This document shows, one piece after another, positions 3,959 through 60,243 of a stretch of 64,000 bases of DNA. A program made the translations under genes and the position numbers. Position 1 is the first letter of the stretch; each line of letters begins with the position of its first letter. The stretch is from an uncultured Planctomycetia bacterium (GTDB lineage Bacteria; Omnitrophota; Gorgyraeia; Gorgyraeales; Gorgyraeaceae), in NCBI GenBank assembly GCA_964415355.1, contig CAYPYS010000002.1:138475-202474 (forward strand). The letters run 5' to 3'. Under the pieces are notes generated by a model that worked only from the letters and a program-made list of their open reading frames with translations, searched no databases and was not told the DNA's origin.

Positions 3959-3997
3959 TAACTTTACACTTTAACATTGTTGAAATGTAAAGTTAGG
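3959..3997. repeat. REP-like palindromic intergenic repeat copy
   Basis: taactttacactttaacattgttgaaatgtaaagttagg. Contains the cooS stop and lies about 18 nt upstream of the ferredoxin start. Confidence 0.9.
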
Positions 3998-5879
3998 CTT
4001 TAAGCTTAAGTGCTTCGCGTTTTTTGTTTATGTGCTCTATCATCAGCTCGGCACCTTTGATGGGATTTTTTTCAAATGCCCATTTGCCGCCGAACATTGG
4101 TTCTATTTCATTGCACATATAATTTTTAAGGTTTTTAGCGCCAAGGACTCGCAATGGCGAGCCAATGACTACAAAGATCCCTGATGTAATAAAATACCAG
4201 CCTATGGCAATTGCTTTTTCAGACATCCATTCCGGCGCTGCGCCTGCAACAGGAAGCTCGTCGATGCTGTTTCCGATGCCACCTTCTTTCACCATCTCGC
4301 AGCATGCTGTGAGAATTCTAGTATTGTCAACGCATGATCCTGTGTGCAGGACCGGCGGAATACCTACTGCTTCGCAAACTTCTTTAAGGCCGTCGCCCGC
4401 GTATCTGAATGCTGCCTCAGGCGTTAAGAGTCCTGCCTTTCCGCATGCACCGGCAGAGCAACCTGTTTGCACTACTAGCACGTCATTCTTTATAAGGTGT
4501 TTTACCATGTCGGCATGACACATGCTCGACTCGTTCTTAGGATTGTCACAACCTACCACGCCTGCTACTCCTCGTATCCTGCCGCTCATTATTGCGTCGT
4601 TCAGCGGCCTGTATGTCCCCCTGAACTTGCCGCCGAGATTGTAAAAGACATTCTCCATGGTGAAACCGGCGACTATCGTCATTTTTTCTTTTGGTATGTT
4701 GACCTTGGATTTGTCCCTATTTTTATAATTTTCTATCGCCTGCGTCAGGATATTCTTTGCTATCTTAAGTGCGTCTTTTTCGTGAAATTCAATATGATCT
4801 ATTCCTTTAAACCTTGCCTTTGGTGAAGTCGATATAAGCTTTGTGTGATAGTTTTTAGCGACATCCGGGAGTGAAGGCATTATGCATTGCACATCCACGA
4901 TCATTGCCTCTACGGCGCCTGTGACTATTGCGAGCTCCTGCTGCAGGAAATTTCCTGCCATAGGCATGCCGTGTCTCATCAAGATCTCGGCAGCAGTGCA
5001 GCATATACCTGCAAGATTAATGCCTTTTGCCCCACTTTTCTTTATTAAATCGAGTATTTCTTTGTCTTGACTTGCTGTGACGATCATGTCTGACAGGGTC
5101 GGCTCGTGGCCGTGCACCAGGACATTGACCTCGTTATCTTTTAAGACGCCCAGGTTTACTTCTGCGCGTATAGGTTGCGGAGAACCGAATAGTATATCAC
5201 TGAGGTCTGTCGCTATCATGGATCCGCCCCAGCCGTCCACGAGCGATGCCCTGATAGCCTGCTCAATGACATGCTTGTATTCGTTGTCGCAACCCATGTG
5301 CGTGCGCGAAAAAGCCTGCACTACCTCTATATCAATGCCTACGGGAGTTACGTTAAATTTCTTCCAGTTCTCGCGTTGTTTTTTCGGAGCCCTCTTGAGA
5401 AGCGTCAATTCACCTTCTTGCTGACCAAATTCTTTCAAAATCCTTTCACCTAACTCTTCAGCTATTTTAAGATCATTCTTGCCTTCTACTTTTAATCCAA
5501 ATTCCTGGGCTATGGCCCTTAATTTTTTAGGATCCTTTATCTGGTAATCCTTTGCCTGACCCCTGCCCAGTTCCAATAATGTCTTTGCGAGGTCGCGGCC
5601 GTGGTCAGAGTGGCACGCAGCGCCTGCTGCGGTATTGCGCGCAAGATTTCTCGCGGCTATGGTGTCTGCGTCTGCTCCACACGTGCCTACCTTTGCGCCT
5701 TCGCCAAAAGGGTCTATGCGGCACGGACCCAGGTTGCACAGCTTGCAGCATACTCCGAGCGTTCCGAATCCGCAGTGCGGCTCTTGGATTGCGAAGCGGT
5801 CCCACACCGTATCGATATTGCTCTTTTTAGCGAGATCGATCAATTTATCATTTACAGGATTACCCGTTGGTTTTGACAT
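3993..5879 (-). CDS. cooS: Ni-dependent carbon monoxide dehydrogenase catalytic subunit (CooS/AcsA)
   Basis: 628 aa. N-terminal HCGFGTLGVCCKLCNLGPCRID cluster-binding signature of the CooS/AcsA family. Confidence 0.9.
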   Translation of the reverse strand: MSKPTGNPVNDKLIDLAKKSNIDTVWDRFAIQEPHCGFGTLGVCCKLCNLGPCRIDPFGEGAKVGTCGADADTIAARNLARNTAAGAACHSDHGRDLAKTLLELGRGQAKDYQIKDPKKLRAIAQEFGLKVEGKNDLKIAEELGERILKEFGQQEGELTLLKRAPKKQRENWKKFNVTPVGIDIEVVQAFSRTHMGCDNEYKHVIEQAIRASLVDGWGGSMIATDLSDILFGSPQPIRAEVNLGVLKDNEVNVLVHGHEPTLSDMIVTASQDKEILDLIKKSGAKGINLAGICCTAAEILMRHGMPMAGNFLQQELAIVTGAVEAMIVDVQCIMPSLPDVAKNYHTKLISTSPKARFKGIDHIEFHEKDALKIAKNILTQAIENYKNRDKSKVNIPKEKMTIVAGFTMENVFYNLGGKFRGTYRPLNDAIMSGRIRGVAGVVGCDNPKNESSMCHADMVKHLIKNDVLVVQTGCSAGACGKAGLLTPEAAFRYAGDGLKEVCEAVGIPPVLHTGSCVDNTRILTACCEMVKEGGIGNSIDELPVAGAAPEWMSEKAIAIGWYFITSGIFVVIGSPLRVLGAKNLKNYMCNEIEPMFGGKWAFEKNPIKGAELMIEHINKKREALKLKA

Positions 5880-6603
5880 CTAAAGCCCCCTCCAGATCTT
5901 TTATGAATTGAGAATTTTTTGGCAACTTCCCTCTTGAATCTATAAGAGACTCATCAACTCTTATAAAACCCTCTATATTTGACCCTTTTAAATTCTTTCG
6001 TATAAAATCCCTGTCCTTATCCGACCTGACCCTGTTTCCGATAACGGAGATTTCTTTAACCTTTAGATTCTCAGCCAGCTCTTTTATTCTACCCGCTGTG
6101 TTTATAGAGGTGCTATTGGGCTCTACAATTATAATAAACTTGTCGACTGCCTGCGCTGTGCCTCTGCCCAGGTGCTCTACGCCTGCCTCCATGTCCACGA
6201 TCGCGACCTCATCTCTATTTAAGAATACATGACTCAATAGCGCTTTTAAGAACGCGCTCTCGGGGCACACGCATCCGGCCCCGCCTTTTTTGACAGTGCC
6301 CATCTCCATGAGCCTGATGCCGTCTACGAGTTTTGAAAATTTATCGGGTATGTCATCCACTTTCGGGTTCAGCTTAAAAAACGCGCCGACTTCCCCTGTG
6401 CGCTCGAGTATCATCTTTTTTAATTCAGCTATCGGCTGTGGTCTTTCTGTGATCCCGAGGGCTGTTGCCAGATTGGCGTCAGGGTCAGCGTCGATAGCGA
6501 TCACGTTGCGCCCTTGTTTTTTAAAAATAAGCGCAAGGCCAGCTGCAACTGACGTCTTACCAACCCCACCTTTACCCGTAATTGCTATTTTCATATCCAC
6601 CAA
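5860..6603 (-). CDS. cooC: CODH nickel-insertion accessory ATPase CooC (AcsF-like)
   Basis: 247 aa. MKIAITGKGGVGKTSVAAGLA Walker A with a MinD/CooC fold. Overlaps the cooS start by 20 nt. Confidence 0.85.
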   Translation of the reverse strand: MVDMKIAITGKGGVGKTSVAAGLALIFKKQGRNVIAIDADPDANLATALGITERPQPIAELKKMILERTGEVGAFFKLNPKVDDIPDKFSKLVDGIRLMEMGTVKKGGAGCVCPESAFLKALLSHVFLNRDEVAIVDMEAGVEHLGRGTAQAVDKFIIIVEPNSTSINTAGRIKELAENLKVKEISVIGNRVRSDKDRDFIRKNLKGSNIEGFIRVDESLIDSRGKLPKNSQFIKDLEGALDVKTNG

Positions 6604-6616
6604 TATTTTTTAAAGT

Positions 6617-6655
6617 TAACTTTACATTTCAACAACGTTAAAATGTAAAGTTAGG
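6617..6655. repeat. REP-like palindromic intergenic repeat copy
   Basis: taactttacatttcaacaacgttaaaatgtaaagttagg, about 13 nt upstream of the cooC start. Confidence 0.9.
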
Positions 6656-6657
6656 CC

Positions 6658-7524
6658 TTATAGACCTGCCGCGTCCAGGACCATGGGCACTTTCTTGTCC
6701 CAACCTATGGGCATTATATGGATACCCTGCGATATAGGCTTTAGTTCCTTTATTAATCTGGCTGCGATTTCAATGGACGTGGCGCTCTTGTCTTGTGTTT
6801 TATCCATTTCCTGGATCAGGCTATCAGGCACAGATACGCCAGCTACATTCTTGTTCATATATTTAGCCATGCCGGCTGATTTCAAGAGCACGATACCCGC
6901 TATTATAGTAGTTTTTAAGTGCTTAGCTGCATCAAGAAATTTTTTAAATAGCATCACGTCATATATTGCCTGCGTTTGGAAAAATTGAGCGCCTGCCTCG
7001 ATCTTTTTCTCCATCTTAACTATCTCCGGCTCTATGGGGTCAGCCCCGGGATTCACAACAGCACCTGTGCAGAACTCCGGTTTCCCTTTTAATTCCTTTC
7101 CGACCATATCCTTTCCAGATTCCAATGTCTTGATTGCCTCAAGCAGCTGTACGGAATCCAGATCAAATACTGGCTTTGCCTGCGGGTGGTCTCCCAGCGC
7201 AGGATGGTCTCCGGTCAGCGCAAGGATGTTCTTTACGCCAAATACCGCTGCTGACAATAAATCCGATTGAAGCGCTAGCCTGTTCCTGTCTCTGCATGTA
7301 ATCTGAAATACAGGCTCAATGCCGCGCTCTATCAGAAATTTACATATAGCCAAAGAGCCTACGCGCATGACAGAGCTCTGGAGATCCGTTACGTTTACGG
7401 CGTCTACCCTGTCTTTTATAAGCTCAGCATCTTTTAACATCTCTTCGATGTCGGTTCCTTTTGGCGGACCGATCTCAGAGGTCAATATAAATTTACCAGC
7501 TTTGATTTTATCGCACAAAGACAT
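6658..7524 (-). CDS. metF: 5,10-methylenetetrahydrofolate reductase, small MetF type
   Basis: 288 aa of the MetF family (…TCRDRNRLALQSDLLSAAVFGVKNILALTGDHP…). No metV-like partner is adjacent. Confidence 0.8.
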   Translation of the reverse strand: MSLCDKIKAGKFILTSEIGPPKGTDIEEMLKDAELIKDRVDAVNVTDLQSSVMRVGSLAICKFLIERGIEPVFQITCRDRNRLALQSDLLSAAVFGVKNILALTGDHPALGDHPQAKPVFDLDSVQLLEAIKTLESGKDMVGKELKGKPEFCTGAVVNPGADPIEPEIVKMEKKIEAGAQFFQTQAIYDVMLFKKFLDAAKHLKTTIIAGIVLLKSAGMAKYMNKNVAGVSVPDSLIQEMDKTQDKSATSIEIAARLIKELKPISQGIHIMPIGWDKKVPMVLDAAGL

Positions 7525-7539
7525 ATCTACCTCTTTCTC

Positions 7540-7587
7540 TAACTTTACACTTTAACGTTTTTAACGTTGTTGAAATGTAAACTTAAG
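7540..7587. repeat. REP-like repeat copy with a 9-nt internal duplication
   Basis: taactttacactttaacgttt-ttaacgttgttgaaatgtaaacttaag. Contains the folD stop. Confidence 0.85.
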
Positions 7588-8446
7588 CCATTTGAAGTTT
7601 AAAGGCTTCGACTAGATTTTTCATTAACATTGCTACTGTCAGGGGACCAACGCCACCTGGAACAGGAGTAATATAGGAAGCTTTTTCCTGTGCCTTATCG
7701 AATTCTACATCGCCGACCAATTTTCCTTCGACTCGATTTATGCCTACGTCAATTACAATAGCACCTTCTTTTATCCATTCACCTTTCACGAGTCCGGCCT
7801 TGCCGACAGCTACTATCAGAACCTCTGCTTTTTTTACGAATTCCGGAAGTGTCCCTCTTTGTCCTGTAGCTATATGACATACAGTGGTCGTGGCAAATTT
7901 ATTCAATAACAATAAAGACAATGGTTTTCCAACTATTTCGCTATGACCGACAACGCAGGCTTCTTTTCCATAGAGCTTAAGCGACTCTATTGAATTCAAT
8001 AGCTCCATACATGCAGCTGCTGTGCAAGGCAATATCTTAGCATTGCCGAATACGATTTCTCCCATATTCTGAGGATGCACTGCTTCAACATCCTTTAGGG
8101 GCGCAATATAGCGCGAAATGATCTTTGCATCTATCTGTTGCGGAAGCGGCATCTGTACGATAATACCATTTACAGCCTTGTCGGAATTGAGTTTGGTCAT
8201 TGCTTTTATAAGGTCTCCTTGGGAACTTTTTGCGTCTAATTTTTCGAGCTGATATTCTACGCCAAGATTTTCAGCATTCTTTTTTTGAGATTTCAGGTAA
8301 ACTTCTGAAGCAGGGTTTTCTCCTACCTGGATACTTACTAATCGTGGTACGGTTTTATACTTGGCTTTTAGCCCCTCAATCTCACTTTTTATGTTTTCTT
8401 TTATACTAGCAGAGAGTTTTTTACCGTCCAATAATTGCGCAGCCAT
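7583..8446 (-). CDS. folD: Bifunctional methylene-THF dehydrogenase / methenyl-THF cyclohydrolase
   Basis: 287 aa. FolD family with the MAAQLLDGKKLS… start and a Rossmann GxxGxxG. Confidence 0.9.
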   Translation of the reverse strand: MAAQLLDGKKLSASIKENIKSEIEGLKAKYKTVPRLVSIQVGENPASEVYLKSQKKNAENLGVEYQLEKLDAKSSQGDLIKAMTKLNSDKAVNGIIVQMPLPQQIDAKIISRYIAPLKDVEAVHPQNMGEIVFGNAKILPCTAAACMELLNSIESLKLYGKEACVVGHSEIVGKPLSLLLLNKFATTTVCHIATGQRGTLPEFVKKAEVLIVAVGKAGLVKGEWIKEGAIVIDVGINRVEGKLVGDVEFDKAQEKASYITPVPGGVGPLTVAMLMKNLVEAFKLQMA

Positions 8447-8447
8447 T

Positions 8448-9047
8448 TTATTTCATCCTTTCGCTTGTTTTGGTCAGGGTTTTTTTATACAAGTCCGCTA
8501 TTTCTTTTTTTAGCGCATCCAATCCCCGTGTTTCTTTTTTTATAAAATCATCGCCTGTCATTCCTTTCAGATTTATCTCACAATTAAATACGCCGGAATT
8601 AAAAGTCGCATTTAAAAGCTCGGCCCCGCAGCCAACGTCTGTGATCAGATTAAGATTCCCTTTCTCCGAAAGATCCAGAGCTATGTTTAGCCCGCTTTTT
8701 GCCGAGCCGCATATTTTTTGACAAATATCATAACCGTTTTTTAAGGCAGCTTCAATGATTTTTTTGTCCTTGGTCTTAAAGGCGTCTCGTATGGCGGAAT
8801 AAGCCTTTACGTCTTCGTCGATCAGCGCGCTAAATTCTTTCCGAATACCTGTTAGCAGGGCAAGATCTTTAGTTATGTCTTGCTCAAAGTCTTTATATCT
8901 TTCCTTTCCAATCGTAAAATTACATACCATTTCCAATAGCGCTATGCCAAGCGCTCCGGTAAAAGCAGCTGCGCTTCCGCCGCCAGGCGCTGGCTTCTTC
9001 GCCGCGAGGTCTTCGATATATTTATTTACAGATTCATTTACATACAT
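8448..9047 (-). CDS. fchA: Methenyl-THF cyclohydrolase of the cyclodeaminase-domain type (FchA-like)
   Basis: 199 aa with the FTCD C-terminal cyclodeaminase-like domain (GGGSAAAFTGALGIALLEMV). Lies between fhs and folD. Confidence 0.7.
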   Translation of the reverse strand: MYVNESVNKYIEDLAAKKPAPGGGSAAAFTGALGIALLEMVCNFTIGKERYKDFEQDITKDLALLTGIRKEFSALIDEDVKAYSAIRDAFKTKDKKIIEAALKNGYDICQKICGSAKSGLNIALDLSEKGNLNLITDVGCGAELLNATFNSGVFNCEINLKGMTGDDFIKKETRGLDALKKEIADLYKKTLTKTSERMK

Positions 9048-9068
9048 CTGATTTGCTCCTTATCTCGC

Positions 9069-9106
9069 TTAAGTTTACAATCAACATTGTTGAAGTGTAT
9101 ACTTAG
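9069..9106. repeat. REP-like repeat copy, mixed-arm subtype
   Basis: ttaagtttacaatcaacattgttgaagtgtatacttag. First of two tandem copies between fhs and fchA. Confidence 0.85.
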
Positions 9107-9109
9107 CGC

Positions 9110-9147
9110 TTAAGTTTACTTTTAACATTGTTAAAAGTAAACTTAAA
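9110..9147. repeat. REP-like repeat copy, GTTTACT-arm subtype (perfect palindrome)
   Basis: cttaagtttacttttaacattgttaaaagtaaacttaa. Contains the fhs stop. Confidence 0.9.
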
Positions 9148-10852
9148 ATAGGCCTTTTATTTTTCCGTCCTTGTCGATATCTACTTTTGTGCCGGCTGGT
9201 ACTGACGGTAGTCCCGGCATGGTGCGCATTGTGCCGCAAAGTGGATATAAAAATCCAGCGCCTGCTGATATCCTGACGTCTCTTATGGGTAATGTAAACT
9301 CCGAGGGCCTCCCTTTTAATTTAGGGTCATGCGACAGCGAAAGATGTGTCTTTGCCATATTCATCGGCAGTTTATCATAGCCCTGTTTTGTGTAATAATC
9401 TATTTTCTTTTCAGCTTCCTCGGAATACTCGACATCCTTCGCGCCGTATATTTTTTTTGCTATTCTTTCTATTTTTTCTTTTATAGGAACATCCAAAGGA
9501 TATAAGAATTTAAATTTTGATTTTTGTTCACACATTTTTAATACAGCCTGCGCAAGGTCTTTGCCGCCCTCTCCGCCTTTTTCCCATACGTCGCTTATGA
9601 CTACATCCATTGCCCCTGCTTTTTTGGCAATGTCCTTGATCGCATTTATTTCTTTTTCAGTGTCATATAAAAATCTGTTGATAGCCACTACTACGGGCAC
9701 GTTAAATAGTTTTATGTTTTCAATGTGCTTCACCAAATTTCCAGCACCTTTTACAACGGCTTCGACATTCTCTTTCTTTACAAGATCCATGTCCAATGGC
9801 TTGCCGGGAATTGCCTCAAATCCTCCACCGTGCATCTTTAGGGCTTTTACCGTACACACCAAGACCATGCCGTCCGGAGGCTTAAGGCCCTTGCTTCGAC
9901 ATTTGATATTCGCGAATTTTTCCGCCCCGCAGTCTGCTCCAAAGCCGCTCTCTGTTACGACGTAATCCCCTAGCTTCAGCGCGATCATATCTGCAAGGAC
10001 AGAATTGTTGCCGTGTGCTATATTTGCAAAAGGTCCCGCGTGCATAATACAGGGCGTGTTTTCGGTGGTCTGTATTAAATTTGGCTTAAGCGCGTCTTTT
10101 AAAAGGACTGCCATCGCGCCAGCGCATTTCAAATCTTCAGCAGTGACCGGTTTTCCGTTACGCGCCGTAGCAACGACCATTCTCGCAAGCCTTTTTCTTA
10201 GATCAGTCAGGCTTTCTGCGAGCGCCAATATAGCCATGACCTCACTGGCAACAGTTATATCAAAACCAGTATCTCTTGGTATGCCGTTTTCTTTTCCGCC
10301 AAGGCCTATCTTGATCTGCCGTAATGCCCTGTCGCTGATATCAACACATCGTCGCGTCACTATAGAGTCAGGGTCGATGCCCAGGGCATTTCCTTTTAAT
10401 AAATGGTTGTCTATGAATGCCGCCAATAGATTATTCGCAGCGCCTACTGCATGAATGTCTCCTGTAAAATGGAGATTTATATCCTCCATTGGTAATACCT
10501 GTGAGTAGCCGCCTCCGGCTGCACCACCTTTTATGCCGAAGACAGGTCCCATAGAAGGCTGTCGCAAGGTCGTAATGACTTTTTTCCCGAGCTTAGCGAG
10601 TCCTAGGCTTAACCCTATAGTGGTCACGGTCTTGCCTTCTCCTAAAGGCGTTGGCGTGATCGCGGTGACATCGATATATTTTCCTTGCGATTTATTTTTA
10701 AGACGGTCAAGAATGGAAAGGGATATTTTGGCCTTGTATTTTCCGTAGAACTCTAATTCATCTTCTTTAATGCCGATCTGAGAGGCTATTCCATTGATAG
10801 GTTTTAATTTTGCAGCTTGCGCTATCTCAAGGTCACTAGGAACTTTTTTCAA
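9143..10852 (-). CDS. fhs: Formate--tetrahydrofolate ligase
   Basis: 569 aa with the PTPLGEGKTTTTIGL P-loop and full-length FTHFS similarity. Its stop codon lies inside a repeat copy. Confidence 0.95.
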   Translation of the reverse strand: MKKVPSDLEIAQAAKLKPINGIASQIGIKEDELEFYGKYKAKISLSILDRLKNKSQGKYIDVTAITPTPLGEGKTVTTIGLSLGLAKLGKKVITTLRQPSMGPVFGIKGGAAGGGYSQVLPMEDINLHFTGDIHAVGAANNLLAAFIDNHLLKGNALGIDPDSIVTRRCVDISDRALRQIKIGLGGKENGIPRDTGFDITVASEVMAILALAESLTDLRKRLARMVVATARNGKPVTAEDLKCAGAMAVLLKDALKPNLIQTTENTPCIMHAGPFANIAHGNNSVLADMIALKLGDYVVTESGFGADCGAEKFANIKCRSKGLKPPDGMVLVCTVKALKMHGGGFEAIPGKPLDMDLVKKENVEAVVKGAGNLVKHIENIKLFNVPVVVAINRFLYDTEKEINAIKDIAKKAGAMDVVISDVWEKGGEGGKDLAQAVLKMCEQKSKFKFLYPLDVPIKEKIERIAKKIYGAKDVEYSEEAEKKIDYYTKQGYDKLPMNMAKTHLSLSHDPKLKGRPSEFTLPIRDVRISAGAGFLYPLCGTMRTMPGLPSVPAGTKVDIDKDGKIKGLF

Positions 10853-10884
10853 GTCTCACCTCCTGATTTACTCAAGCAAGAGCT

Positions 10885-10923
10885 TTAAGTATACACTTTA
10901 ACATTGTTGAAATGTATACTTAA
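10885..10923. repeat. REP-like repeat copy, GTATACA-arm subtype
   Basis: ttaagtatacactttaacattgttgaaatgtatacttaa. Overlaps the yraN stop. Confidence 0.9.
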
Positions 10924-11300
10924 TATTTATATCGTTCATTTAATTCAAAGGCGTTTTTAATGAGCTTGATTTTCGGGCTGTTGCTGTCCACGTCTTCGAC
11001 GCTTACCACGTCAAATTTACAGTTTTTGTTTTCCAGCTTTTTCAGTTTTATATACATCAATGCTGTCTTGGTAATTTGATCTTGCTTTCTTCTGTCAATA
11101 GACTGCTCCGGAAGCCCGAACGCTTTTGAATTTACTGAACGTACCTCAATAAAAGAAATATATCCGTCGTCAGCTATTATGTCTATTTCTCCGTGCCTTG
11201 TCCTGAAATTTTTTTCGATTATATCATACCCTTGACTTCTCAGAAAAGAGGCTGCTATCTCCTCCCCTTTTTTACCAGTCGAAATCCTTTTAAAAGTCAT
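10920..11300 (-). CDS. yraN: YraN-family endonuclease (UPF0102)
   Basis: 126 aa. GEEIAASFLRSQGYDIIEKNFRTRHGEIDII motif. Conserved position downstream of rnhB. Confidence 0.8.
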   Translation of the reverse strand: MTFKRISTGKKGEEIAASFLRSQGYDIIEKNFRTRHGEIDIIADDGYISFIEVRSVNSKAFGLPEQSIDRRKQDQITKTALMYIKLKKLENKNCKFDVVSVEDVDSNSPKIKLIKNAFELNERYKY

Positions 11301-11953
11301 TTCTTCTTCACAGGCGCGAAGCTTTTCCTATGAATCGCGCAAGGGCCGTTCTTTTTCAATGCATCGATGTGCGTTTTTGTCCCATAACCTTTATGTTTTG
11401 AAAAACCGTATTGAGGGAATGTTTTATCATAAGAAATCATTATTCTATCACGCGTGACCTTCGCGATGATAGACGCCGCAGCGATCGAAAGGCTCTTTGA
11501 ATCCCCTTTCAAAATAGGGACTGTTTTGTAAGGGAGGTCCGGGCTCATGTTGCCATCCACAAGCACGCAGACATTTTTCCTTATTTGTTTTTTCTCGCAT
11601 CTATTTAAACGACAAAATTCTTCTACGAGTCTCTCCACGGCTTGCTTCATGGCTGAAAGCGTAGCGACCCTTATATTTTTCTTGTCTATAAAACCGTGTC
11701 CTCTTAGGCCTACTCCAAAAACAGCCTTTCTGGATATCTCGCTAAAGGCCTTTTCCCTTTGTCTGGGAAGCAATTTTTTAGAGTCGTCGATTCTCTCTCC
11801 AAAACGAGGAAAATTAAATCTTTTTAATGGAGATGTTTTAAGGACAACAGCTGCTGCTACTACAGGACCGGCAAGCGGGCCCCGCCCCGCTTCATCTAGA
11901 CCGATGATTACGGCCGCGCCTTCAAGAAATGCCCTCTTTTCACAGAGGAGCAT
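11297..11953 (-). CDS. rnhB: Ribonuclease HII. The start is probably the internal ATG at 11953; the track ORF extends to 11986.
   Basis: GLDEAGRGPLAGPVVAAAVVL catalytic motif. The track's N-terminal extension overlaps rplS. Confidence 0.8.
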   Translation of the reverse strand: MLLCEKRAFLEGAAVIIGLDEAGRGPLAGPVVAAAVVLKTSPLKRFNFPRFGERIDDSKKLLPRQREKAFSEISRKAVFGVGLRGHGFIDKKNIRVATLSAMKQAVERLVEEFCRLNRCEKKQIRKNVCVLVDGNMSPDLPYKTVPILKGDSKSLSIAAASIIAKVTRDRIMISYDKTFPQYGFSKHKGYGTKTHIDALKKNGPCAIHRKSFAPVKKK

Positions 11954-12314
11954 CCTCCTTTTTGTCAAGCGTTTGTTCCTCTTCAATCTTTGTGCGTTTC
12001 CCTATTTTTTTACGCAGATAATATAGCCTGGATCTTCTGACCTTGCCTTTTTTTACGATAGCGACAGAATCTATCGAGGGCGAATGCAGCTGAAAAACCC
12101 TCTCTGCGCCTTCGCCATACGATATGCGCCTCACAGTGAAGGTTTCTCTTGAGCCAGAGCCTTTCCTGGCTATGACTATACCTTCAAAGGCCTGCAGGCG
12201 AGTCTTGTCGCCTTCCTTGATCTTTACGAAGACCTTTACTGTATCCCCGGCTTTAAAATCAGGCATATTCTTCTTTGCAAATTCCTTTTCGAGTTCACGG
12301 ATTTTACTGTTCAT
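11940..12314 (-). CDS. rplS: 50S ribosomal protein L19
   Basis: 124 aa with full-length L19 similarity (…FEGIVIARKGSGSRETFTVRRISYGEGAERVF…). Confidence 0.9.
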   Translation of the reverse strand: MNSKIRELEKEFAKKNMPDFKAGDTVKVFVKIKEGDKTRLQAFEGIVIARKGSGSRETFTVRRISYGEGAERVFQLHSPSIDSVAIVKKGKVRRSRLYYLRKKIGKRTKIEEEQTLDKKEDAPL

Positions 12315-12323
12315 TTCTCCTCC

Positions 12324-13010
12324 TCATTTAATTAAATCTGGTCTTTTTTTCTTTGTTGCCTTCAGGGACTCTTTTTTTCTCCATTCTTTGATCTTTTCAT
12401 GATCCCCTGACAAAAGTACCTTTGGGACCCCCATGCCTTTATAATCAGCAGGCCTTGTGTATTGCGGGTATTCCAGTAAATTTTTCGAAAAAGATTCTTC
12501 TTGATTAGAATCTTCATTTCCCAGCGCGCCGGGCAAAAGCCTGATAATGCTATCGATCATTACCATGGCAGCGAGCTCTCCGCCTGTCATGACAAAATCA
12601 CCTATCGATATTTCTTCGTCGATCAGATACTCCCTGACTCTCGCGTCAATACCCTCATAATGTCCGCATAGCAAAATCATATGCTCATGCTTGGACATTT
12701 TTTTTGCCAGCTTCTGGTTAAAGGTCGTGCCTTTTGGACTCAGTAAAACAGTCCGGGTCTTTAATCTTTTGTCCTTGGTCTTGCGTCTTATGTAATTTAC
12801 GGCTTCAAAGAACGGCTCGGCGTTCATAACCATGCCCGGTCCGCCGCCAAACGGTTTATTGTCCACTTTTCTATGCTTGTCTTTTGTAAAATCCCTTAAG
12901 TCCACGACGTTTATTTCTGCGACGCCTTTCTTGAGGGCTCGTTTTACAATGGACTCTCCGAGCACAGCATCAAACATCTTTGGAAATATAGTCAATACAT
13001 CTATGCGCAT
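12324..13010 (-). CDS. trmD: tRNA (guanine37-N1)-methyltransferase
   Basis: 228 aa. MRIDVLTIFPKMFD start with a SPOUT fold. Confidence 0.9.
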   Translation of the reverse strand: MRIDVLTIFPKMFDAVLGESIVKRALKKGVAEINVVDLRDFTKDKHRKVDNKPFGGGPGMVMNAEPFFEAVNYIRRKTKDKRLKTRTVLLSPKGTTFNQKLAKKMSKHEHMILLCGHYEGIDARVREYLIDEEISIGDFVMTGGELAAMVMIDSIIRLLPGALGNEDSNQEESFSKNLLEYPQYTRPADYKGMGVPKVLLSGDHEKIKEWRKKESLKATKKKRPDLIK

Positions 13011-13046
13011 ATTAACTTGCTGTCATTGTGATGCCGATCCGAAACC

Positions 13047-13289: not shown

Positions 13290-13303
13290 TTTAATCCCTC
13301 CTT

Positions 13304-13340
13304 TAACTTTACATTTTAACGTTGTTGAAATGTAAAGTTA
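13304..13340. repeat. REP-like palindromic intergenic repeat copy
   Basis: taactttacattttaacgttgttgaaatgtaaagtta, about 14 nt upstream of the rpsP start. Confidence 0.9.
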
Positions 13341-14603: not shown

Positions 14604-14620
14604 GCTAAATTCCACCTAGC

Positions 14621-14660
14621 CTAACTTTACATTTCAACAACGTTAAAGTGTAAACTTAGG
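14621..14660. repeat. REP-like palindromic intergenic repeat copy
   Basis: ctaactttacatttcaacaacgttaaagtgtaaacttagg. Contains the prmC stop. Confidence 0.9.
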
Positions 14661-16589: not shown

Positions 16590-16627
16590 TAACTTTACAC
16601 TTCAACAACGTTAAAGTGTAAAGTTAG
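16590..16627. repeat. REP-like palindromic intergenic repeat copy
   Basis: taactttacacttcaacaacgttaaagtgtaaagttagg, about 8 nt upstream of the prfA start. Confidence 0.9.
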
Positions 16628-16855: not shown

Positions 16856-16892
16856 TAACTTTACATTTCAACAATGTTAAAGTGTAAAGTTA
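16856..16892. repeat. REP-like palindromic intergenic repeat copy
   Basis: taactttacatttcaacaatgttaaagtgtaaagtta. Contains the rho stop. Confidence 0.9.
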
Positions 16893-24299: not shown

Positions 24300-24336
24300 T
24301 AACTTTACATTTCAACAACGTTAAAATGTAAAGTTA
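24300..24336. repeat. REP-like repeat copy, adjacent to a GC hairpin
   Basis: taactttacatttcaacaacgttaaaatgtaaagtta, about 16 nt upstream of the BNR-protein gene start. Confidence 0.9.
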
Positions 24337-27890: not shown

Positions 27891-27928
27891 TAACTTTACA
27901 CTTTAACGTTGTTAAAGTGTAAAGTTAG
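27891..27928. repeat. REP-like repeat copy (perfect palindrome), first of a tandem pair
   Basis: taactttacactttaacgttgttaaagtgtaaagttag. Confidence 0.9.
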
Positions 27929-27966
27929 TTAAGTATACATTTCAACAACGTTAAAATGTAAAGTTA
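27929..27966. repeat. REP-like repeat copy, mixed arms, second of a tandem pair
   Basis: ttaagtatacatttcaacaacgttaaaatgtaaagtta. Contains the GspG-like gene stop. Confidence 0.9.
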
Positions 27967-28417: not shown

Positions 28418-28456
28418 TTAAGTATACATTTTAACATTGTTGAAATGTATACTTAA
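28418..28456. repeat. REP-like repeat copy, GTATACA-arm subtype
   Basis: ttaagtatacattttaacattgttgaaatgtatacttaa, between the PilB-like copy 1 and the GspG-like gene. Confidence 0.9.
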
Positions 28457-32499: not shown

Positions 32500-32507
32500 C
32501 GCTCTCC

Positions 32508-32545
32508 TTAGGTTTACTTTTAACATTGTTGAAAGTAAACCTAAG
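32508..32545. repeat. REP-like repeat copy, GGTTTACT-arm subtype
   Basis: ttaggtttacttttaacattgttgaaagtaaacctaag. Overlaps the larB-like SD and start region. Confidence 0.85.
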
Positions 32546-32553: not shown

Positions 32554-32850
32554 TTATTGTTTAAAGATTAGATACAAGATGAGCACGATTGCAGCGCAAG
32601 ATAGGATATAAAAATCGTTAAAATAAAAAAAGTCCCTTATCTTGTCGGAAGAAGTCGCAATGCGCTCGTAACGCGTCCACTTTCCTGATTTACTGCGATA
32701 CGAATCCAAATCATCAGACTTGTACCGCGTATAGATGCCCCCTATCTTGTAAGAAGACACCTCGCCTTTATCTATAATGTCCTGGAAATCACCCTCAGAG
32801 ATACCGAGATAGTCCGCAGCCTCTTTAAGCGTTAAGAATTTCTTTATCAT
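32554..32850 (-). CDS. Membrane-anchored excisionase/MerR-type HTH (HTH_17) protein. The track start 32868 is a repeat-derived extension.
   Basis: LTLKEAADYLGISEGDFQDIIDKGEVSSYKIGGIYTRY HTH plus a C-terminal TM helix (FYILSCAAIVLILYLIF). The start assignment is uncertain because the repeat abuts the ATG. Confidence 0.5.
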   Translation of the reverse strand: MIKKFLTLKEAADYLGISEGDFQDIIDKGEVSSYKIGGIYTRYKSDDLDSYRSKSGKWTRYERIATSSDKIRDFFYFNDFYILSCAAIVLILYLIFKQ

Positions 32851-32888
32851 AAGTTTACATTTCAACAACGTTAAAGTGTAAAGTTAGG
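32850..32888. repeat. REP-like repeat copy, mixed arms
   Basis: taagtttacatttcaacaacgttaaagtgtaaagttagg. Abuts the ATG of the HTH gene. Confidence 0.9.
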
Positions 32889-33876: not shown

Positions 33877-33915
33877 TAACTTTACATTTTAACGTTGTTG
33901 AAATGTAAAGTTAGG
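33877..33915. repeat. REP-like palindromic intergenic repeat copy
   Basis: taactttacattttaacgttgttgaaatgtaaagttagg. Contains the tsaD stop. Confidence 0.9.
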
Positions 33916-39486: not shown

Positions 39487-39525
39487 TAACTTTACATTTC
39501 AACAACGTTAAAATGTAAAGTTAGG
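39487..39525. repeat. REP-like palindromic intergenic repeat copy
   Basis: taactttacatttcaacaacgttaaaatgtaaagttagg, about 9 nt upstream of the gatC start. Confidence 0.9.
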
Positions 39526-42209: not shown

Positions 42210-42248
42210 TAACTTTACACTTTAACGTTGTTGAAATGTAAAGTTAGG
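42210..42248. repeat. REP-like palindromic intergenic repeat copy
   Basis: taactttacactttaacgttgttgaaatgtaaagttagg. Contains the mfd stop. Confidence 0.9.
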
Positions 42249-44146: not shown

Positions 44147-44183
44147 TAACTTTACATTTCAACAATGTTAAAGTGTAAAGTTA
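44147..44183. repeat. REP-like palindromic intergenic repeat copy
   Basis: taactttacatttcaacaatgttaaagtgtaaagtta. Contains the argS stop. Confidence 0.9.
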
Positions 44184-47571: not shown

Positions 47572-47610
47572 TAACTTTACATTTTAACGTTGTTGAAATG
47601 TAAAGTTAGG
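47572..47610. repeat. REP-like palindromic intergenic repeat copy
   Basis: taactttacattttaacgttgttgaaatgtaaagttagg. Contains the nadD stop and lies directly upstream of the candidate promoter. Confidence 0.9.
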
Positions 47611-49587: not shown

Positions 49588-49625
49588 TTAAGTATACTTT
49601 TAACAATGTTAAAAGTATACTTAAG
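49588..49625. repeat. REP-like repeat copy, GTATACT-arm subtype (perfect palindrome)
   Basis: ttaagtatacttttaacaatgttaaaagtatacttaag. Confidence 0.9.
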
Positions 49626-49646
49626 CGTTGAAATGTAAAGTTAGAG
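49626..49646. repeat. REP-like repeat half-copy
   Basis: cgttgaaatgtaaagttagag (right arm only). Contains the mdh stop. Confidence 0.7.
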
Positions 49647-50536: not shown

Positions 50537-50577
50537 TAACTTTACATTTCAACAACGTTAAAGTGTAAAGTTAGAGC
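50537..50577. repeat. REP-like palindromic intergenic repeat copy
   Basis: ttaactttacatttcaacaacgttaaagtgtaaagttagag, between icd and mdh. It overlaps the AAGGAGG SD region of mdh. Coordinates may be off by 1 nt. Confidence 0.9.
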
Positions 50578-54495: not shown

Positions 54496-54503
54496 GGCTC
54501 CCC

Positions 54504-54519
54504 AAAGTGTAAAGTTAGG
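54504..54519. repeat. REP-like repeat half-copy
   Basis: aaagtgtaaagttagg. Contains the pnp stop, upstream of the leuC-like gene. Confidence 0.6.
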
Positions 54520-57029: not shown

Positions 57030-57068
57030 TAAGTTTACACTTTAACGTTGTTGAAATGTAAAGTTAGG
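57030..57068. repeat. REP-like repeat copy, mixed arms
   Basis: taagtttacactttaacgttgttgaaatgtaaagttagg. Encodes the C-terminal [10 protein letters not shown] and stop of the GT2 gene. Confidence 0.9.
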
Positions 57069-57900: not shown

Positions 57901-57939
57901 TAACTTTACACTTTAACGTTGTTGAAATGTAAAGTTAGG
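57901..57939. repeat. REP-like palindromic intergenic repeat copy
   Basis: taactttacactttaacgttgttgaaatgtaaagttagg, in the divergent region between the GT2 gene and the plus-strand O-antigen-ligase-like gene. Confidence 0.9.
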
Positions 57940-57941
57940 GT

Positions 57942-59639
57942 TTGGTGTTGCGTAACTTACCGCTGTATTTTATAATATATTATATCATGAACAAGGAAAC
58001 TAATCTAAAAAAGATATCACCTCCATTGTTTTTTTTGTTTCTGTTATTTGTCTTTATCCGTCCCTTTGTCTCGGAAATAGCTTACCCCGTAATCAGCGGA
58101 TATATGCGAACAGCTGTCTTAATGTTATTTCTCGCAAGCCTGTTGTCTAGTAAGGAGTTCCGGATTGCAAAAAATCTCTTTAACAAACCCCTGTTGCTCT
58201 ACTGTATCGCGATAGCCATATCCCTGCTTTACACTATAAATCTACGCGCTAGCCTGCATCAAATATACCAATTAACTCCGCTATTGTGCCTTTTTTATCT
58301 CGCCCTGAATCTGGAAAAAAACCAGTCCGTTAAATTAGTAATCCTCCTGGTACTTGCAGCGTCGGTGTTGAGTATTTATGGGGCATGCCAATACCTCTGG
58401 GGATTTGAGAATACAAAAAATTACCTAAGTCTGCACATGAAGGACATGCTGCAGGCAAGATATGCCAGAGAAATACTTATGACGAAAAGAGCGATTGCTA
58501 CATTTTTTTCGCCAAATATGTTTGCGGTATTTCTCGCAATGACCATACCGCTCTGCGCGGGACTTTTATTGGACAATCTAAAAAATAAAAAACGTAGATT
58601 GTTTTTTGGCTTTTCTGCGATATGTATGCTTACGGCGCTTCTTCTTACAAAATCTATGGCCGGGGCCATAAGCATGTGTTTCGGCGCTATCATATTCTTT
58701 GCTTTTGCCTGTCATCGGCCATCCAAAAAAATATTCATCTTTCTCGTGTTTATATTATTATTGCCTCTATTTTTACTATTATTACGCTCTGACATGTTTG
58801 TCAATATCTTAAATCAGCAAAATACAATATTACAGCGATTAAGTTTCTGGAGAAGCGCATCGGAGATCATCAAGGATTTTACCCTTAGGGGAGTCGGGAT
58901 AGGGAACTTTGCAAATGCCTATCCAGGATACAGAGAACTCGTAGCGAACGAAACAAGATTGGCCCATAATGTATTCCTGCAAACCTGGGCTGAGGCGGGG
59001 CTATTAGGCATGATCTCTATGATCTTATTGGTATGGGCCTTCATAAAAAGCTCCTTAAGGATCGAAAAGAATTTTTTTAACATAGGACTTATTGCCTCGG
59101 GCTATGTGTTTTTAATAAACAATCTGTTTGATTTTTCTTATTTCATACCACAGGTTTCATATCTATGGTGGATAAATTTGGGCCTTGTGGCACAAAACCT
59201 TAAGCGCCAGGACACCAGAACTAACTATAGATTAAAATTATTTATTGCCTTAATGGTTTTAATGATAATATATTTGAATGTAAAATCCACCATTGCGTCA
59301 GCTTATTTCCAAAGAGAAGATTACAGAAAGGCAATCGCCCTGGAGCCTTATAATGACTTATACTATGCGAGAATAAACGAATACGACAAGGCCATTGCCC
59401 TTAATCCTCGCTCTCCCTTCTATCACAAAAACCTGGCCCTATCATACCTTGATAAAAACATGATAAAAGAAGCTATCGCAGAGCTAGAAAAGGCCTCTGA
59501 GCTGTATCCTGCGGATGAGTCATTGCACCAGCAATTGTTCGATTTATACACTGCGACAGGGCAAAAAGAAAAAGCTGAAAAAGAGAGGCTCAGGCTTGAA
59601 GAATTTCATTCAAAATATTCAGGATATTTTATCAGATAG
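57942..59639 (+). CDS. O-antigen ligase/polymerase-like (Wzy_C) polytopic membrane protein with C-terminal TPR repeats. The start may be the ATG at 57987.
   Basis: This is the only plus-strand gene. It has about 12 TM segments and a C-terminal TPR region (…AIALNPRSPFYHKNLALSYLDKNMIKEAIAELEKASELYP…). A TATAAT lies at about 57971. Confidence 0.6.
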   Translation: MVLRNLPLYFIIYYIMNKETNLKKISPPLFFLFLLFVFIRPFVSEIAYPVISGYMRTAVLMLFLASLLSSKEFRIAKNLFNKPLLLYCIAIAISLLYTINLRASLHQIYQLTPLLCLFYLALNLEKNQSVKLVILLVLAASVLSIYGACQYLWGFENTKNYLSLHMKDMLQARYAREILMTKRAIATFFSPNMFAVFLAMTIPLCAGLLLDNLKNKKRRLFFGFSAICMLTALLLTKSMAGAISMCFGAIIFFAFACHRPSKKIFIFLVFILLLPLFLLLLRSDMFVNILNQQNTILQRLSFWRSASEIIKDFTLRGVGIGNFANAYPGYRELVANETRLAHNVFLQTWAEAGLLGMISMILLVWAFIKSSLRIEKNFFNIGLIASGYVFLINNLFDFSYFIPQVSYLWWINLGLVAQNLKRQDTRTNYRLKLFIALMVLMIIYLNVKSTIASAYFQREDYRKAIALEPYNDLYYARINEYDKAIALNPRSPFYHKNLALSYLDKNMIKEAIAELEKASELYPADESLHQQLFDLYTATGQKEKAEKERLRLEEFHSKYSGYFIR

Positions 59640-60164
59640 CCTAAAGGTGATCTTTTTAAGCGCTAAAGATAAAAGATTTACTATAATATAAACGCTCACA
59701 TTTATAAATCTGACTATAATATAAATTGCCTTAAAAGGCAGGGCTAGTATATTTTTAATGATTTCAAAAAAAGGCCTTACGCGCAAAAGATACCACTCGT
59801 CACAGTAATTGTACAAGAGTTTGGGGCATTTAAATCTTCGAAATGCCTTCCAGACCAGAAATGGGTTCAGGGACAAAATAACTACTGCATCAAAATCTCC
59901 CGCCAAAACCTCTGGGTCATTCGTAGTAAAAATATTTTCATGTGACACTACATGCGAAACGAGCCCTATTTTAAAATCAGGTAATATAATTTTACAGTCT
60001 GCGTTTTTAAATCTTTTTTTAATGCTCCCTACTGCCTTACGAAGGTGCTCTTCATAAGGAAGGCTTATAACGAGAATATTTTTTATTTTTCCTGGATCTA
60101 TGCTATCTTTACGAGCCAAGTCAATGAACAGTCTTCCTGTTTTTTTCAAAATATAATTTATCAT
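59619..60164 (-). CDS. Hypothetical protein. Its C-terminal ~45 aa read through an AT-rich spacer, so it may be a gene remnant.
   Basis: 181 aa. Converges on and overlaps the plus-strand gene by 21 nt. No confident family assignment. Confidence 0.3.
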   Translation of the reverse strand: MINYILKKTGRLFIDLARKDSIDPGKIKNILVISLPYEEHLRKAVGSIKKRFKNADCKIILPDFKIGLVSHVVSHENIFTTNDPEVLAGDFDAVVILSLNPFLVWKAFRRFKCPKLLYNYCDEWYLLRVRPFFEIIKNILALPFKAIYIIVRFINVSVYIIVNLLSLALKKITFRLSDKIS

Positions 60165-60172
60165 GAGAAGCT

Positions 60173-60243
60173 AAGTTTACACCCCACTTTACTTCCTTAA
60201 GGACTCGCGGGGCATGCTTTAACGTTGTTGAAGTGTAAACTTA
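60173..60243. repeat. REP-like repeat copy interrupted by a 33-nt insertion
   Basis: Left arm taagtttacac, then the insert cccactttacttccttaaggactcgcggggcatg, then the right part ctttaacgttgttgaagtgtaaactta, which encodes the GT4 C-terminus and stop. Confidence 0.7.

Follow-up and report, generated by a model that had tools for sequence, protein, structure and literature searches.

What is a short palindrome doing in almost every gene junction of a bacterial chromosome, and does it spread as mobile DNA or serve as a structural or regulatory RNA? The question is raised by 64 kb from an uncultured Omnitrophota bacterium with Wood-Ljungdahl pathway genes (the window, meaning the whole stretch analyzed). 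It holds 32 full-length and 3 partial copies of the palindrome CC-TAACTTTACA-YTTYAAC-NNN-GTTRAAR-TGTAAAGTTA-GG, a hairpin-forming repeat of 37 to 45 bp that matches no Rfam family. Searching the window for the arm AACTTTACAYTTYAAC with up to 3 mismatches gave 60 matches, compared with 2.57 +/- 1.71 in shuffled sequences, and pairing of arms resolved 27 canonical copies of 37 nt each. The remainder comprise one copy with divergent hybrid arms (9069-9105), three copies of a short subfamily in which each arm is 1 nt shorter (9110-9147, 32507-32544, and 49588-49625), one copy with a 9-nt internal tandem duplication (7540-7585), and the three partial copies (49626-49643, 54499-54517, and 60216-60243). 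A covariance model trained on the copies recovered 31 loci in the window, and 2 more overlapping or adjacent copies were recognized by eye. The count given in an earlier sequence-only reading (33 full, 2 half, and 1 interrupted) therefore holds to within one or two copies. The same reading described unequal arms with a fixed 3-nt bulge, which is incorrect: both arms have the same length, the 3 nt form the loop of the hairpin, and the sole irregularity of the stem is a 1x1 mismatch or wobble. The density in the window, about one copy per 2 kb, is high and probably lies inside the range of the densest REP-like families described. The motif is also not confined to the window, as five further copies occur in the adjoining 6 kb and matches occur in other MAGs.

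All copies in the window are intergenic. Only three or four of about 33 gaps of at least 40 nt lack one (polA/TPR, rpsO/pnp, 27095-27406, and perhaps 61331/61403), which bears out the claim that nearly every such gap is occupied. Within operons, for example, among the Wood-Ljungdahl genes and in gatCAB, copies separate the stop codon from the following SD; the stop codon lies in the base of the stem, and the start that follows is 7 to 25 nt past it. In 19 cases the upstream gene terminates within a canonical copy, and in 16 of these its stop is the element's first TAA (one third expected); the terminal TAA is the upstream stop codon in about half of copies. The individual copies are listed below, with notes on species P (84% DNA identity) and on other genomes compared (L024 and similar labels).

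3959..3995: canonical 37-nt copy; minus-strand TAA is the stop of the upstream Prismane/CooS-like gene; SD and ATG of the next gene 18 nt downstream
6617..6653: canonical; upstream stop 7 nt ahead of the element; species P ortholog is of the AAGTTCACA type
7540..7585: central 9-nt tandem duplication (TTTAACGTT x2), hybrid arms; TAA is the upstream stop; ortholog in species P intact
9069..9105: divergent, hybrid arms AAGTATACA / AAGTTTACA; orthologous to the single copy of species P at this junction
9110..9147: short subfamily, CTTAAGTTTACT-TTTAAC-NNN-GTTAAA-AGTAAACTTAAG; TAA is the FTHFS stop; missing at the same junction in species P
10886..10922: canonical, AAGTATACA subfamily; TAA is the upstream stop; in species P, the sequence at this junction is unrelated and the ORF longer
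13304..13340: canonical; TAA is the EPSP synthase stop; species P ortholog differs at 5 inner positions
14622..14658: canonical, hybrid outer arms; upstream ORF stop inside the element (+13)
16590..16626: canonical; L31 / RF-1 junction
16856..16892: canonical; TAA is the rho stop codon
18758..18794: canonical; TAA is the polA stop codon
22728..22764: canonical; upstream stop 7 nt ahead of the element
24300..24336: canonical; next ATG 16 nt downstream; preceded by a small hairpin, TTCCCG..CGGGAA
26260..26296: canonical; upstream ORF stop inside the element (+29)
27891..27927: canonical, perfect palindrome; second of two copies 2 nt apart
27930..27966: hybrid arms ACTTTACA / AGTATACA; TAA is the stop of a pilin-like gene; first of the adjacent pair
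28419..28455: canonical, AAGTATACA subfamily
32507..32544: short subfamily, AGGTTTACT...AGTAAACCT
32850..32886: canonical, hybrid outer arms
33877..33913: canonical; TAA is the tsaD stop codon
36211..36247: canonical; TAA is the gatB stop; junction also occupied in L025
37708..37744: perfect palindrome, AAGTATACA subfamily; gatA / gatB junction
39487..39523: canonical; ksgA / gatC junction, also occupied in L026
41199..41235: canonical; surA-like / pdxA junction
42210..42246: canonical; TAA is the mfd stop; L107 (a 91% relative) has a different palindrome of ~70 nt there
44147..44183: canonical; TAA is the argS stop; junction occupied in L026, L024, and L107 (L107 copy interrupted)
47572..47608: canonical; TAA is the upstream stop codon
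49588..49625: short subfamily, AAGTATACT type; placed where an older canonical copy would have its center
49626..49643: half copy, one arm to CAAC, abutted by the 49588 copy; TAA is still the ldh stop
50537..50573: canonical; TAA is the isocitrate/isopropylmalate dehydrogenase stop; junction occupied in L026
52154..52190: canonical; TAA is the T2SSE ATPase stop
54499..54517: half copy TAACTTTACACTTT; SD and ATG directly after; TAA is still the pnp stop
57030..57066: canonical, hybrid outer arms; upstream ORF stop inside the element (+29)
57901..57937: canonical, in a divergent gap 14 nt upstream of a minus-strand glycosyltransferase start and ~50 nt upstream of a plus-strand Wzy-like gene; no stop codon involved
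60216..60243: three-quarter copy of one arm, loop, and 7 nt of the second arm; upstream ORF stop is the inner TAA

Relative to transcription, both orientations are equally common (12 to 13). The repeat is nevertheless polar, as a C on one arm faces a T at the mirrored position of the other in 28 of 31 copies (p = 5e-6), and the loop sequence tracks orientation. All window copies are bounded by TA...TA within Y-TA...TA-R flanks. Such boundaries, random orientation, and the use of TAA stops far above chance would suit a minimal MITE made of two back-to-back terminal inverted repeats of a DDE-transposase insertion sequence (IS630/Tc1- or IS5-like), and insertion at TA, TAA, or TTAA with target duplication would account for the link to stop codons. 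We consider this origin very improbable and the proposed insertion route no likelier. The bounding TA belongs to the covarying stem, with mirror CA...TG variants in L007, L021, L028, and L018 that a duplicated target would not show; the copies gave no evidence of target-site duplication, and the Y...R flanks are equally present where TAA is not a stop. Matched arm changes would also not restore recognition by an unchanged transposase, 37 bp is far under the usual MITE size, and searches of the window and of ~300 kb from repeat-carrying genomes turned up neither a parent insertion sequence nor a lone terminal repeat beside a transposase.

The arm variants noted in the sequence-only reading, and their switching together across arms, were confirmed. 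Of 65 copies, 61 have two identical outer arms, across five arm types, and where junctions are orthologous in species P, both arms there are of a different type. At pair 8-38, 45 copies have CG, 21 have GC, and 3 are unpaired; pair 10-36 is UA in 63 and AU in 6, pair 11-35 is UA in 62 and CG in 7 (neither with any other state), and pair 5-41 is UA in 64, CG in 4, and other in 1. The covariation score was 0.189, compared with 0.119 in shuffles, a value reached by 0 of 500 shuffles. Compensatory change is thus real, but it is confined to few subfamilies and therefore represents few independent events. This co-switching bears on the idea that the repeat is a DNA site for a dimeric host protein (nucleoid-organizing, uptake-signal, or global regulatory) with AAGTTTACA half-sites at fixed spacing. 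Function would then not depend on orientation, and between-species sequence conservation would be expected, as would a constant outer 9-mer and total length around a variable interior. However, half-sites should vary independently, the spacer would need neither self-complementarity nor within-genome uniformity, coding DNA contains no single half-sites (unlike the case of uptake sequences), and copies are missing in some close relatives, all of which leaves a binding site with only a slim chance of being correct.

At least three other MAG species share the repeat, with exact matches in three species-representative MAGs, and the 33-nt core is the same across species with Mfd only ~75% identical (L028; also L007, L012, and L021). 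Only the closest syntenic genomes contain diverged relatives, in which the outer stem AAGTTTACA…TGTAAACTT is kept and the inner stem differs. Across the clade, the outer 9-mer and total length (35 to 37 nt) are conserved and the inner sequence varies, with the inner stem homogeneous within a genome and different between genomes. Over the same ~22 kb of conserved synteny, occupancy ranges from 0 to 13 junctions: 13 in the window, ~9 palindromes in L024 (several combining the same outer stem with other inner stems), 4 in L026, 1 in each of L025, L027, and L028, and none in L108. The covariance model found no match in relatives with Mfd at most 61% identical, and the largest populations encountered are those of this genome and its sister species. 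Compared with species P, four junctions are shared and two copies are window-only; no copy-number polymorphism was seen among same-population metagenome contigs (99.8 to 100% identical), and the genomes compared yielded no clean pair of empty and filled sites. Turnover is visible within the window, where the 49588 copy sits at the expected center of the 49626 copy, copies lie in adjacent pairs (27891/27930 and 9069/9110), the copy at 7540 has a 9-nt duplication at its center, and the half copies at 54499 and 49626 retain only the stop-codon end; in L107, one copy is broken by an insertion. Several junctions are occupied in distant relatives as well, a pattern compatible with repeated insertion and also with long persistence or function. 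Retention of the core across diverged species, unlike typical REPs, could likewise reflect selection for a host function.

One form of such a function would be an operon-punctuating RNA hairpin selected by the host, perhaps once mobile and now functional. The placement exactly between stop and next SD in operons, with the stop in the stem base and a start close behind, agrees with this, as do the stable stems (z-scores of -6 to -10), the core kept between species, the junctions filled in distant relatives, PNPase and Rho encoded in the window, and canonical intrinsic terminators that are not enriched in the scanned region. The hairpin could block 3'-to-5' decay by PNPase, be cut by a double-strand RNase to give cistrons unequal stabilities, or couple termination with reinitiation, although each of these options seems doubtful to us. 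L108, no more distant than L024 (81% Mfd identity), has the same operons with similar gap lengths and yet no copy. Both orientations occur, and selection on the transcribed-strand RNA is unsupported, with no preference for G.U over A.C (28 versus 33, p = 0.61). One copy lies in a divergent promoter/5' region with no upstream gene, unfoldable half copies persist, and inner stems that are homogeneous within genomes and different between them require copying rather than site-by-site selection. We therefore regard host-selected RNA as an unlikely account of the repeat as a whole.

Signals for transcription fare worse still. TTTACA and TAAAGT/TATACT resemble -35 and -10 hexamers, and a few copies were detected by promoter and terminator scans, as might be expected of a bidirectional promoter (TTTACA ... 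TAAAGT) or a per-gene terminator. However, the repeat matches neither a sigma-70 promoter nor an intrinsic terminator: the two hexamers are 19 nt apart, both are weakened in the arm variants TTCACA/TGAACT, and only two or three copies passed the promoter scan and one the terminator scan, with no enrichment over shuffles (promoters, 42 versus 32 +/- 5; terminators, 23 versus 22 +/- 4). The stem has no following T-run, and a terminator 7 to 25 nt ahead of the next start would deprive operon genes of their promoter. We give this reading almost no credence.

On the choice between a mobile REP/MITE and a structural or regulatory RNA, which the sequence-only reading had left open, the evidence favors mobile, subfamily-wise copying because copy number is lineage-specific with gain and loss at 84% identity, and because copies are nested or decayed, randomly oriented, and nearly all heirs of one polar "haplotype." The repeat behaves like selfish, copy-amplified DNA of the REP type and is probably an "untagged" REP-like hairpin, mobilized in trans and tolerated inside operons. 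We also think it reasonably likely that it is nonautonomous DNA, multiplied from few master variants into short gene spacers in one Omnitrophota clade. Copies have been gained, lost, and replaced at gene junctions in either orientation, keeping the built-in asymmetry of the master. Copying would need a trans-acting enzyme that reads the stem in its folded form and not a particular linear sequence, since outer-stem changes seem to survive only if present on both arms, and the conserved mismatch would mark one strand, like the hairpins of HUH/Y1 (RAYT, IS200/IS605-type) enzymes. Copies inside operons, after the stop codon and before the next ribosome-binding site, would be transcribed as intercistronic hairpins (-17 to -28 kcal/mol). 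Both stem ends read TAA on either strand, so any frame entering the repeat terminates, and for about half of the upstream genes the first TAA is now the working stop. An insert that folds back on itself would keep the stop near the next start, which may explain why operons tolerate the repeat.

Neither a RAYT/Y1 gene nor any other transposase turned up in the window, in agreement with the sequence-only reading, or in ~300 kb from repeat-carrying genomes, with a positive control at an unrelated locus detected. The missing RAYT is weak evidence because RAYTs are single-copy.

Comparison with known systems places the repeat nearest to REP-like families. Like integron attC sites, it forms a hairpin just past or overlapping each gene's stop codon, and its center YTTYAAC...GTTRAAR resembles the attC core motifs RYYYAAC / GTTRRRY. 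In attC, however, the core motifs stand at the outer ends of a 57- to 141-bp site with extrahelical bases, whereas here they lie beside the loop, the flanking genes are syntenic housekeeping genes rather than cassettes, and no integrase is nearby. Neisseria Correia elements and other MITEs are also small, nonautonomous, intergenic, and transcribed with their neighbors, and the window copies share their TA boundaries. Correia elements, in contrast, are 100 to 155 bp, with 26-bp terminal repeats and true TA duplication, whereas this repeat is a single 37- to 45-bp hairpin with TA within the pairing stem.

Untagged REP-like families exist in Mycobacterium tuberculosis, Deinococcus, Bordetella, Brucella, and cyanobacteria (PMC3733652). 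Like those stem-loops, the repeat is abundant and intergenic and has no conserved terminal tag or known dedicated transposase; it differs in its phylum, sequence, and higher density and in an outer stem that is clade-conserved around genome-specific inner stems. With the RAYT-mobilized REP/REPIN sequences of E. coli, Pseudomonas, and Stenotrophomonas, it shares a high-copy, strictly extragenic imperfect palindrome of 20 to 65 nt, complementary-stem subfamilies, a conserved stem imperfection, stop-codon termini, marked copy-number variation among related genomes, and persistence at orthologous junctions (PMC3733652, PMC6006769, PMC2817692). Unlike them, it has no unpaired GTAG/CGTC guide at the stem foot, occurs nearly always as singlets rather than inverted doublets (REPIN-type doublets are almost nil in the window), has an AT-rich stem, fills nearly every gap of at least 40 nt, comes with no RAYT found, and has a core common to several species, whereas REPs are normally species-specific. 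REP families divide into subfamilies with alternative complementary stem residues, and their termini frequently provide a flanking gene with its stop codon (PMC3733652). The provision of stop codons by the TAA of the present repeat is the most striking point of its anatomy and had been missed by the sequence-only reading.

A search with the arm AACTTTACAYTTYAAC, allowing up to three mismatches, returned 60 matches in the window, compared with 2.57 +/- 1.71 in dinucleotide-preserving shuffles. Pairing of these arms yielded 27 canonical copies of 37 nt each, to which the following variant and partial copies are added.

Variant and partial copies of the palindromic element in the window
9069-9105: copy with hybrid arms
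9110, 32507, and 49588: three copies of a subfamily that is shorter by one nt per arm
7540: copy with a 9-nt tandem duplication at its center
49626, 54499, and 60216: three partial copies

In total, 35 copies or remnants are present in the 64 kb, all of them (35/35) intergenic, which amounts to approximately one copy per 2 kb and approximately 2% of the DNA there. Adjacent pairs are found only at 27891/27930 and 9069/9110, and the remaining copies are singlets. Only three or four gaps of at least 40 nt are free of the element, and a covariance model made from element copies recovered 31 window loci. The sequence-only reading, which described a hairpin repeat filling nearly every intergenic gap, is therefore borne out in its copy counts, intergenic placement, and few empty gaps, except for the 3-nt bulge it proposed: the arms are equal in length, the three odd bases form the loop, and the predicted fold contains one 1x1 mismatch but no bulge. 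The motif is also not confined to the window, as five further copies lie in a 6-kb extension beyond the window start and at least three other metagenome-assembled genomes (MAGs) carry it (CAYULJ01, UBA10183, and DRR093005_bin.42). All but one of the approximately 60 genes of the window are on the minus strand, an extreme strand bias, and the coding strand shows strong purine loading (plus-strand AT skew of about -0.2 and GC skew of about -0.12 over positions 1-64000).

Read along the minus (coding) strand, the element has the sequence CC-TAACTTTACA-[YTTYAAC-NNN-GTTRAAR]-TGTAAAGTTA-RN. With a length of 37 to 45 nt, a stem of 16 to 20 bp, and a loop of 3 nt, it is a short imperfect palindrome of the REP-like kind, and its flanks (CC-TAAC...GTTA-GG) are themselves paired. 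Predicted free energies range from -16.6 to -27.7 kcal/mol (z-scores of -6 to -10), and either strand folds equally well. The inner 17 nt are polar, carrying C in one arm and T at the mirrored position in 28 of 31 copies (p = 5e-6), and the loop, AAC/AAT versus GTT/ATT, tracks this polarity. Relative to the direction of transcription, the polar unit lies in one orientation in 12 copies and in the other in 13. The 13-mer CGCGGGAATGACA occurs exactly twice, at 24340-24352 and 49571-49583 on opposite strands, each time adjoining an element; as an associated motif it was rejected, since allowing two mismatches gave 4 occurrences versus 1.45 expected, which is not significant.

Base pairs were counted over 69 element copies from five genomes.

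Base pair counts at covarying stem positions
Pair 8-38: CG 45, GC 21, other 3
Pair 10-36: UA 63, AU 6, other 0
Pair 11-35: UA 62, CG 7, other 0
Pair 5-41: UA 64, CG 4, other 1

Compensatory change between the arms, as claimed from the sequence alone, is upheld in that both the covariation score and the count of cells changed on both sides exceeded 500 of 500 shuffles and all slid controls. However, the pair counts derive from a few subfamilies and do not represent numerous independent events. Identical outer arms, belonging to five arm types, are found in 61 of 65 copies from species P (MAG CAYULJ01) and the window lineage. On the transcribed strand, G.U pairs (28) are not in excess over A.C pairs (33). 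Nothing therefore indicates optimization of the sense RNA specifically, and selection on sense-strand RNA was rejected on this basis. The bounding TA pairs belong to the stem, and their mirrored change from TA...TA to CA…TG argues against a TA target duplication. With these bounding bases covarying as a pair and no direct repeat beyond them, there is no evidence for a miniature inverted-repeat element (MITE) of the TIR/TSD type, and no parent insertion sequence sharing terminal repeats was found in approximately 300 kb from element-carrying genomes.

Rfam gave no match at gathering score over the whole window and none on elements at E <= 1 in 13200-19000. An intrinsic terminator is rejected because the stem is AT rich and the downstream flank is A/G rich without a T-run, with one copy passing the scan and no enrichment over shuffles. 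The best sigma-70 promoter hexamers are 19 nt apart, whereas 16 to 18 nt are required, and the two to three copies passing that scan are likewise no enrichment over shuffles. In integron attC sites, the R''/R' core sites are outermost and the L boxes have extrahelical bases, and the sites accompany mobile cassettes and an integrase, whereas the AAC…GTT motifs of the element are central rather than terminal and its neighbors are housekeeping genes in conserved synteny; an attC identity was rejected on these grounds. A viral origin was rejected after an IMG/VR search returned no element matches.

The closest resemblance is to REPs. Like the REPs associated with RAYT transposases, the element is a short imperfect palindrome with many dispersed extragenic copies, and its subfamilies (five outer-arm types) differ by complementary stem changes. 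RAYT-type REPs, however, carry an unpaired GTAG, GT[AG]G, or CGTC at the 5' foot and frequently form inverted doublets (REPIN/BIME) at fixed spacing, and copies of them flank a single-copy Y1/HUH transposase gene, the RAYT, in an arrangement called a REPtron, whereas the element has neither GTAG nor CGTC and forms only the two adjacent pairs. A search by HUH regular expression and phmmer, using IS608 TnpA and E. coli RayT sequences, yielded no HUH motif or phmmer match in the window, the 6-kb extension, 91 kb of species P, and the syntenic relatives (approximately 300 kb of element-bearing DNA); as a positive control, it detected the IS200-like Y1 transposase in L086, an unrelated locus (E = 7e-9). 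Abundant intergenic palindromic stem-loops lacking a conserved terminal tag form a described class (PMC3733652), and untagged REP-like families without a known transposase exist (PMC3733652; PMC6006769). Because it lacks both the GTAG/CGTC guide and doublets, we file the element as an untagged REP-like stem-loop repeat.

The element is closely tied to the ends of genes. Its first TAA is the in-frame stop of the upstream gene in 17 window copies (15 full and 2 half), and among the 19 canonical copies of the window and 6-kb extension with an upstream ORF ending inside, 16 use this first TAA, where one-third would be expected. Overall, about half of the copies act as the stop codon of the upstream gene, and given this share and its fraction of window DNA, the repeat is now part of the grammar of gene boundaries. 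The Shine-Dalgarno (SD) sequence and start codon of the next gene follow 7 to 25 nt past the stem, which places these copies within operons, including gatCAB and those of the Wood-Ljungdahl pathway (CODH/ACS and folate genes), and RNA polymerase must read through them. The link to gene 3' ends is not obligatory, as one copy occupies a gap between divergent genes, 14 nt ahead of the start of a glycosyltransferase gene. We rejected a directional target model, in which IS200/IS605-like insertion 3' of TAA would make the inner orientation predict the stop end: the window alone gave a hint (9 A/5 B versus 3 A/9 B), but over 70 contexts the signal was gone (A 11/B 11 at offset 0). In species P, a single element (contig L010, 3846-3882) appears to terminate two convergent ORFs of 1059 and 139 codons, each taking the TAA at its own palindrome end. 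At 57938-57990 of the window, an element and the likely start codon (ATG at 57988) of a plus-strand Wzy-like gene flank a near-consensus sigma-70-like promoter (TTGCGT … TATAAT); the TTG at 57942 that the ORF list gives probably does not mark the start of this gene.

Members of the Omnitrophota are uncultured, mostly ultrasmall bacteria with compact genomes. Window proteins are identical to proteins on metagenome contigs from several samples, and the Mfd homologues are all labeled Omnitrophota, the nearest named one being "Ca. Gorgyraea atricola" (78%). An exact-pattern scan of species-representative genomes returned at least 17 loci, with the taxonomic spread being a lower bound. Species P is syntenic with window positions 6479-14507 at 84% DNA identity. 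Its contigs (L008-L023) carry the label "uncultured Planctomycetia," which is probably wrong judging from this identity and synteny with the window, whose proteins all match Omnitrophota.

Synteny around mfd is kept in six relatives (L024, L108, L025, L026, L027, and L028; Mfd 73 to 81% identical), but element occupancy is not. In this region, 13 of 23 junctions are occupied in the window. L024 has approximately nine intergenic palindromes, several of which share the outer stem AAGTTTACA…TGTAAACTT with the window but differ in their inner stems, and L026 has four copies, which occur in both orientations and have a further, distinct inner stem. L025, L027, and L028 have a single copy apiece, and L108 has none despite comparable gap lengths. 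No match to the element was obtained in relatives whose Mfd is at most 61% identical. Four junctions are occupied in both the window and species P, and two copies are window only; at shared junctions, species P carries another arm type on both arms, such as AACTTTACA…TGTAAAGTT replaced by AAGTTCAC…GTGAACTT. At the argS/mfd junction of L107, whose Mfd is 91% identical, the orthologous copy (1814-1911) is split by an insertion of approximately 40 nt, which has its own inverted repeat (CCGCG…CGCGG), and another junction is occupied by an unrelated palindrome. Same-population contigs (99.8 to 100% identical) had no indel or difference at any copy, and in a metagenome scan with Mfd for close relatives suited to empty-site analysis, identity was at most 75% among the matches listed. 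Intergenic DNA of these related Omnitrophota also contains other palindrome families.

Other palindromes in intergenic DNA of related Omnitrophota
L024, 352-386 and 9953-9987: palindrome TTAGGTTACGAAAAT…ATTTTCGTAACCTAA, two occurrences
L026, 932-970: classic GTAG-tagged, G+C-rich REP, GTAGGGGGCGGG…CCCGCCCCCTAC
L107, 3836-3925, and L108, 3190-3325: element of approximately 70 nt containing ATCCTGAGGATGCGACCGAAGGA

The lineage-specific abundance, the gain, loss, and replacement of copies, their nesting and decay, and their random orientation, together with a polar "haplotype" in nearly all copies and inner stems that are uniform within but different between genomes, point to a copy-amplified, nonautonomous repeat of the REP kind rather than independently evolved functional sites. 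Based on the paired arm changes and the conserved strand-marking mismatch, the element is probably mobilized by a trans-acting enzyme that recognizes the stem in its folded form. We keep alive a functional or exapted reading, an intercistronic hairpin affecting mRNA decay or translational coupling, in light of the core kept between species, some junctions also being occupied in distant relatives, and the tight setting of copies between stop codon and SD; such a role is compatible with a mobile origin. A bolder proposal, which we regard as improbable, is that the hairpin is a clade-wide "operon punctuation" signal with the stop codon in its stem base, whose outer stem (AAGTTTACA/TGTAAACTT) would be read by a conserved Omnitrophota protein, and which would change in a coordinated way at hundreds of junctions whenever its reader changed. 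The hairpin would then be more than selfish DNA. Candidate readers would be a nuclease specific to hairpins or a domesticated enzyme of the HUH type, and if true, this would be a new way of organizing polycistronic expression in streamlined nanobacteria.

As a REP-like repeat, the element is of a kind already known, and its most striking features are on record for REPs, whose termini often provide the stop codon of flanking ORFs and whose families include subfamilies with alternative complementary stem residues (PMC3733652; PMC6006769). What is new is the family, the host phylum, the density, the share of genes ending in the element, and the outer stem conserved across the clade. Searches of the available literature turned up no description of it, and the main genomic survey of the Omnitrophota mentions no palindromic repeat family (PMC10066038). 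Copy numbers across the clade form a natural gradient, ranging between 0 and 13 in 22 kb with identical synteny, that can be used to study REP-like expansion, replacement by new subfamilies, and decay, and the clade provides a means of searching for the enzyme that copies untagged REP-like elements. In practical terms, the repeat fragments metagenome assemblies and muddles the calling of gene ends in these MAGs.

Comparison with L109, a strain contig of the same population, revealed two differences in coding regions. Two overlapping minus-strand ORFs of 266 and 354 aa, with a weak PMT_2 match, occupy window positions 24490-26278, where L109 has one 570-aa gene; the single-gap difference indicates a frameshift, reflecting either a pseudogene or an assembly error. 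Approximately 40 of 46 substitutions fall in two MshEN/T2SSE pilus ATPase genes (28789-30450 and 34186-34229), with the remainder of the 21.5 kb near-identical, and this cluster resembles the trace of a recombination event or a pilus locus that evolves rapidly.
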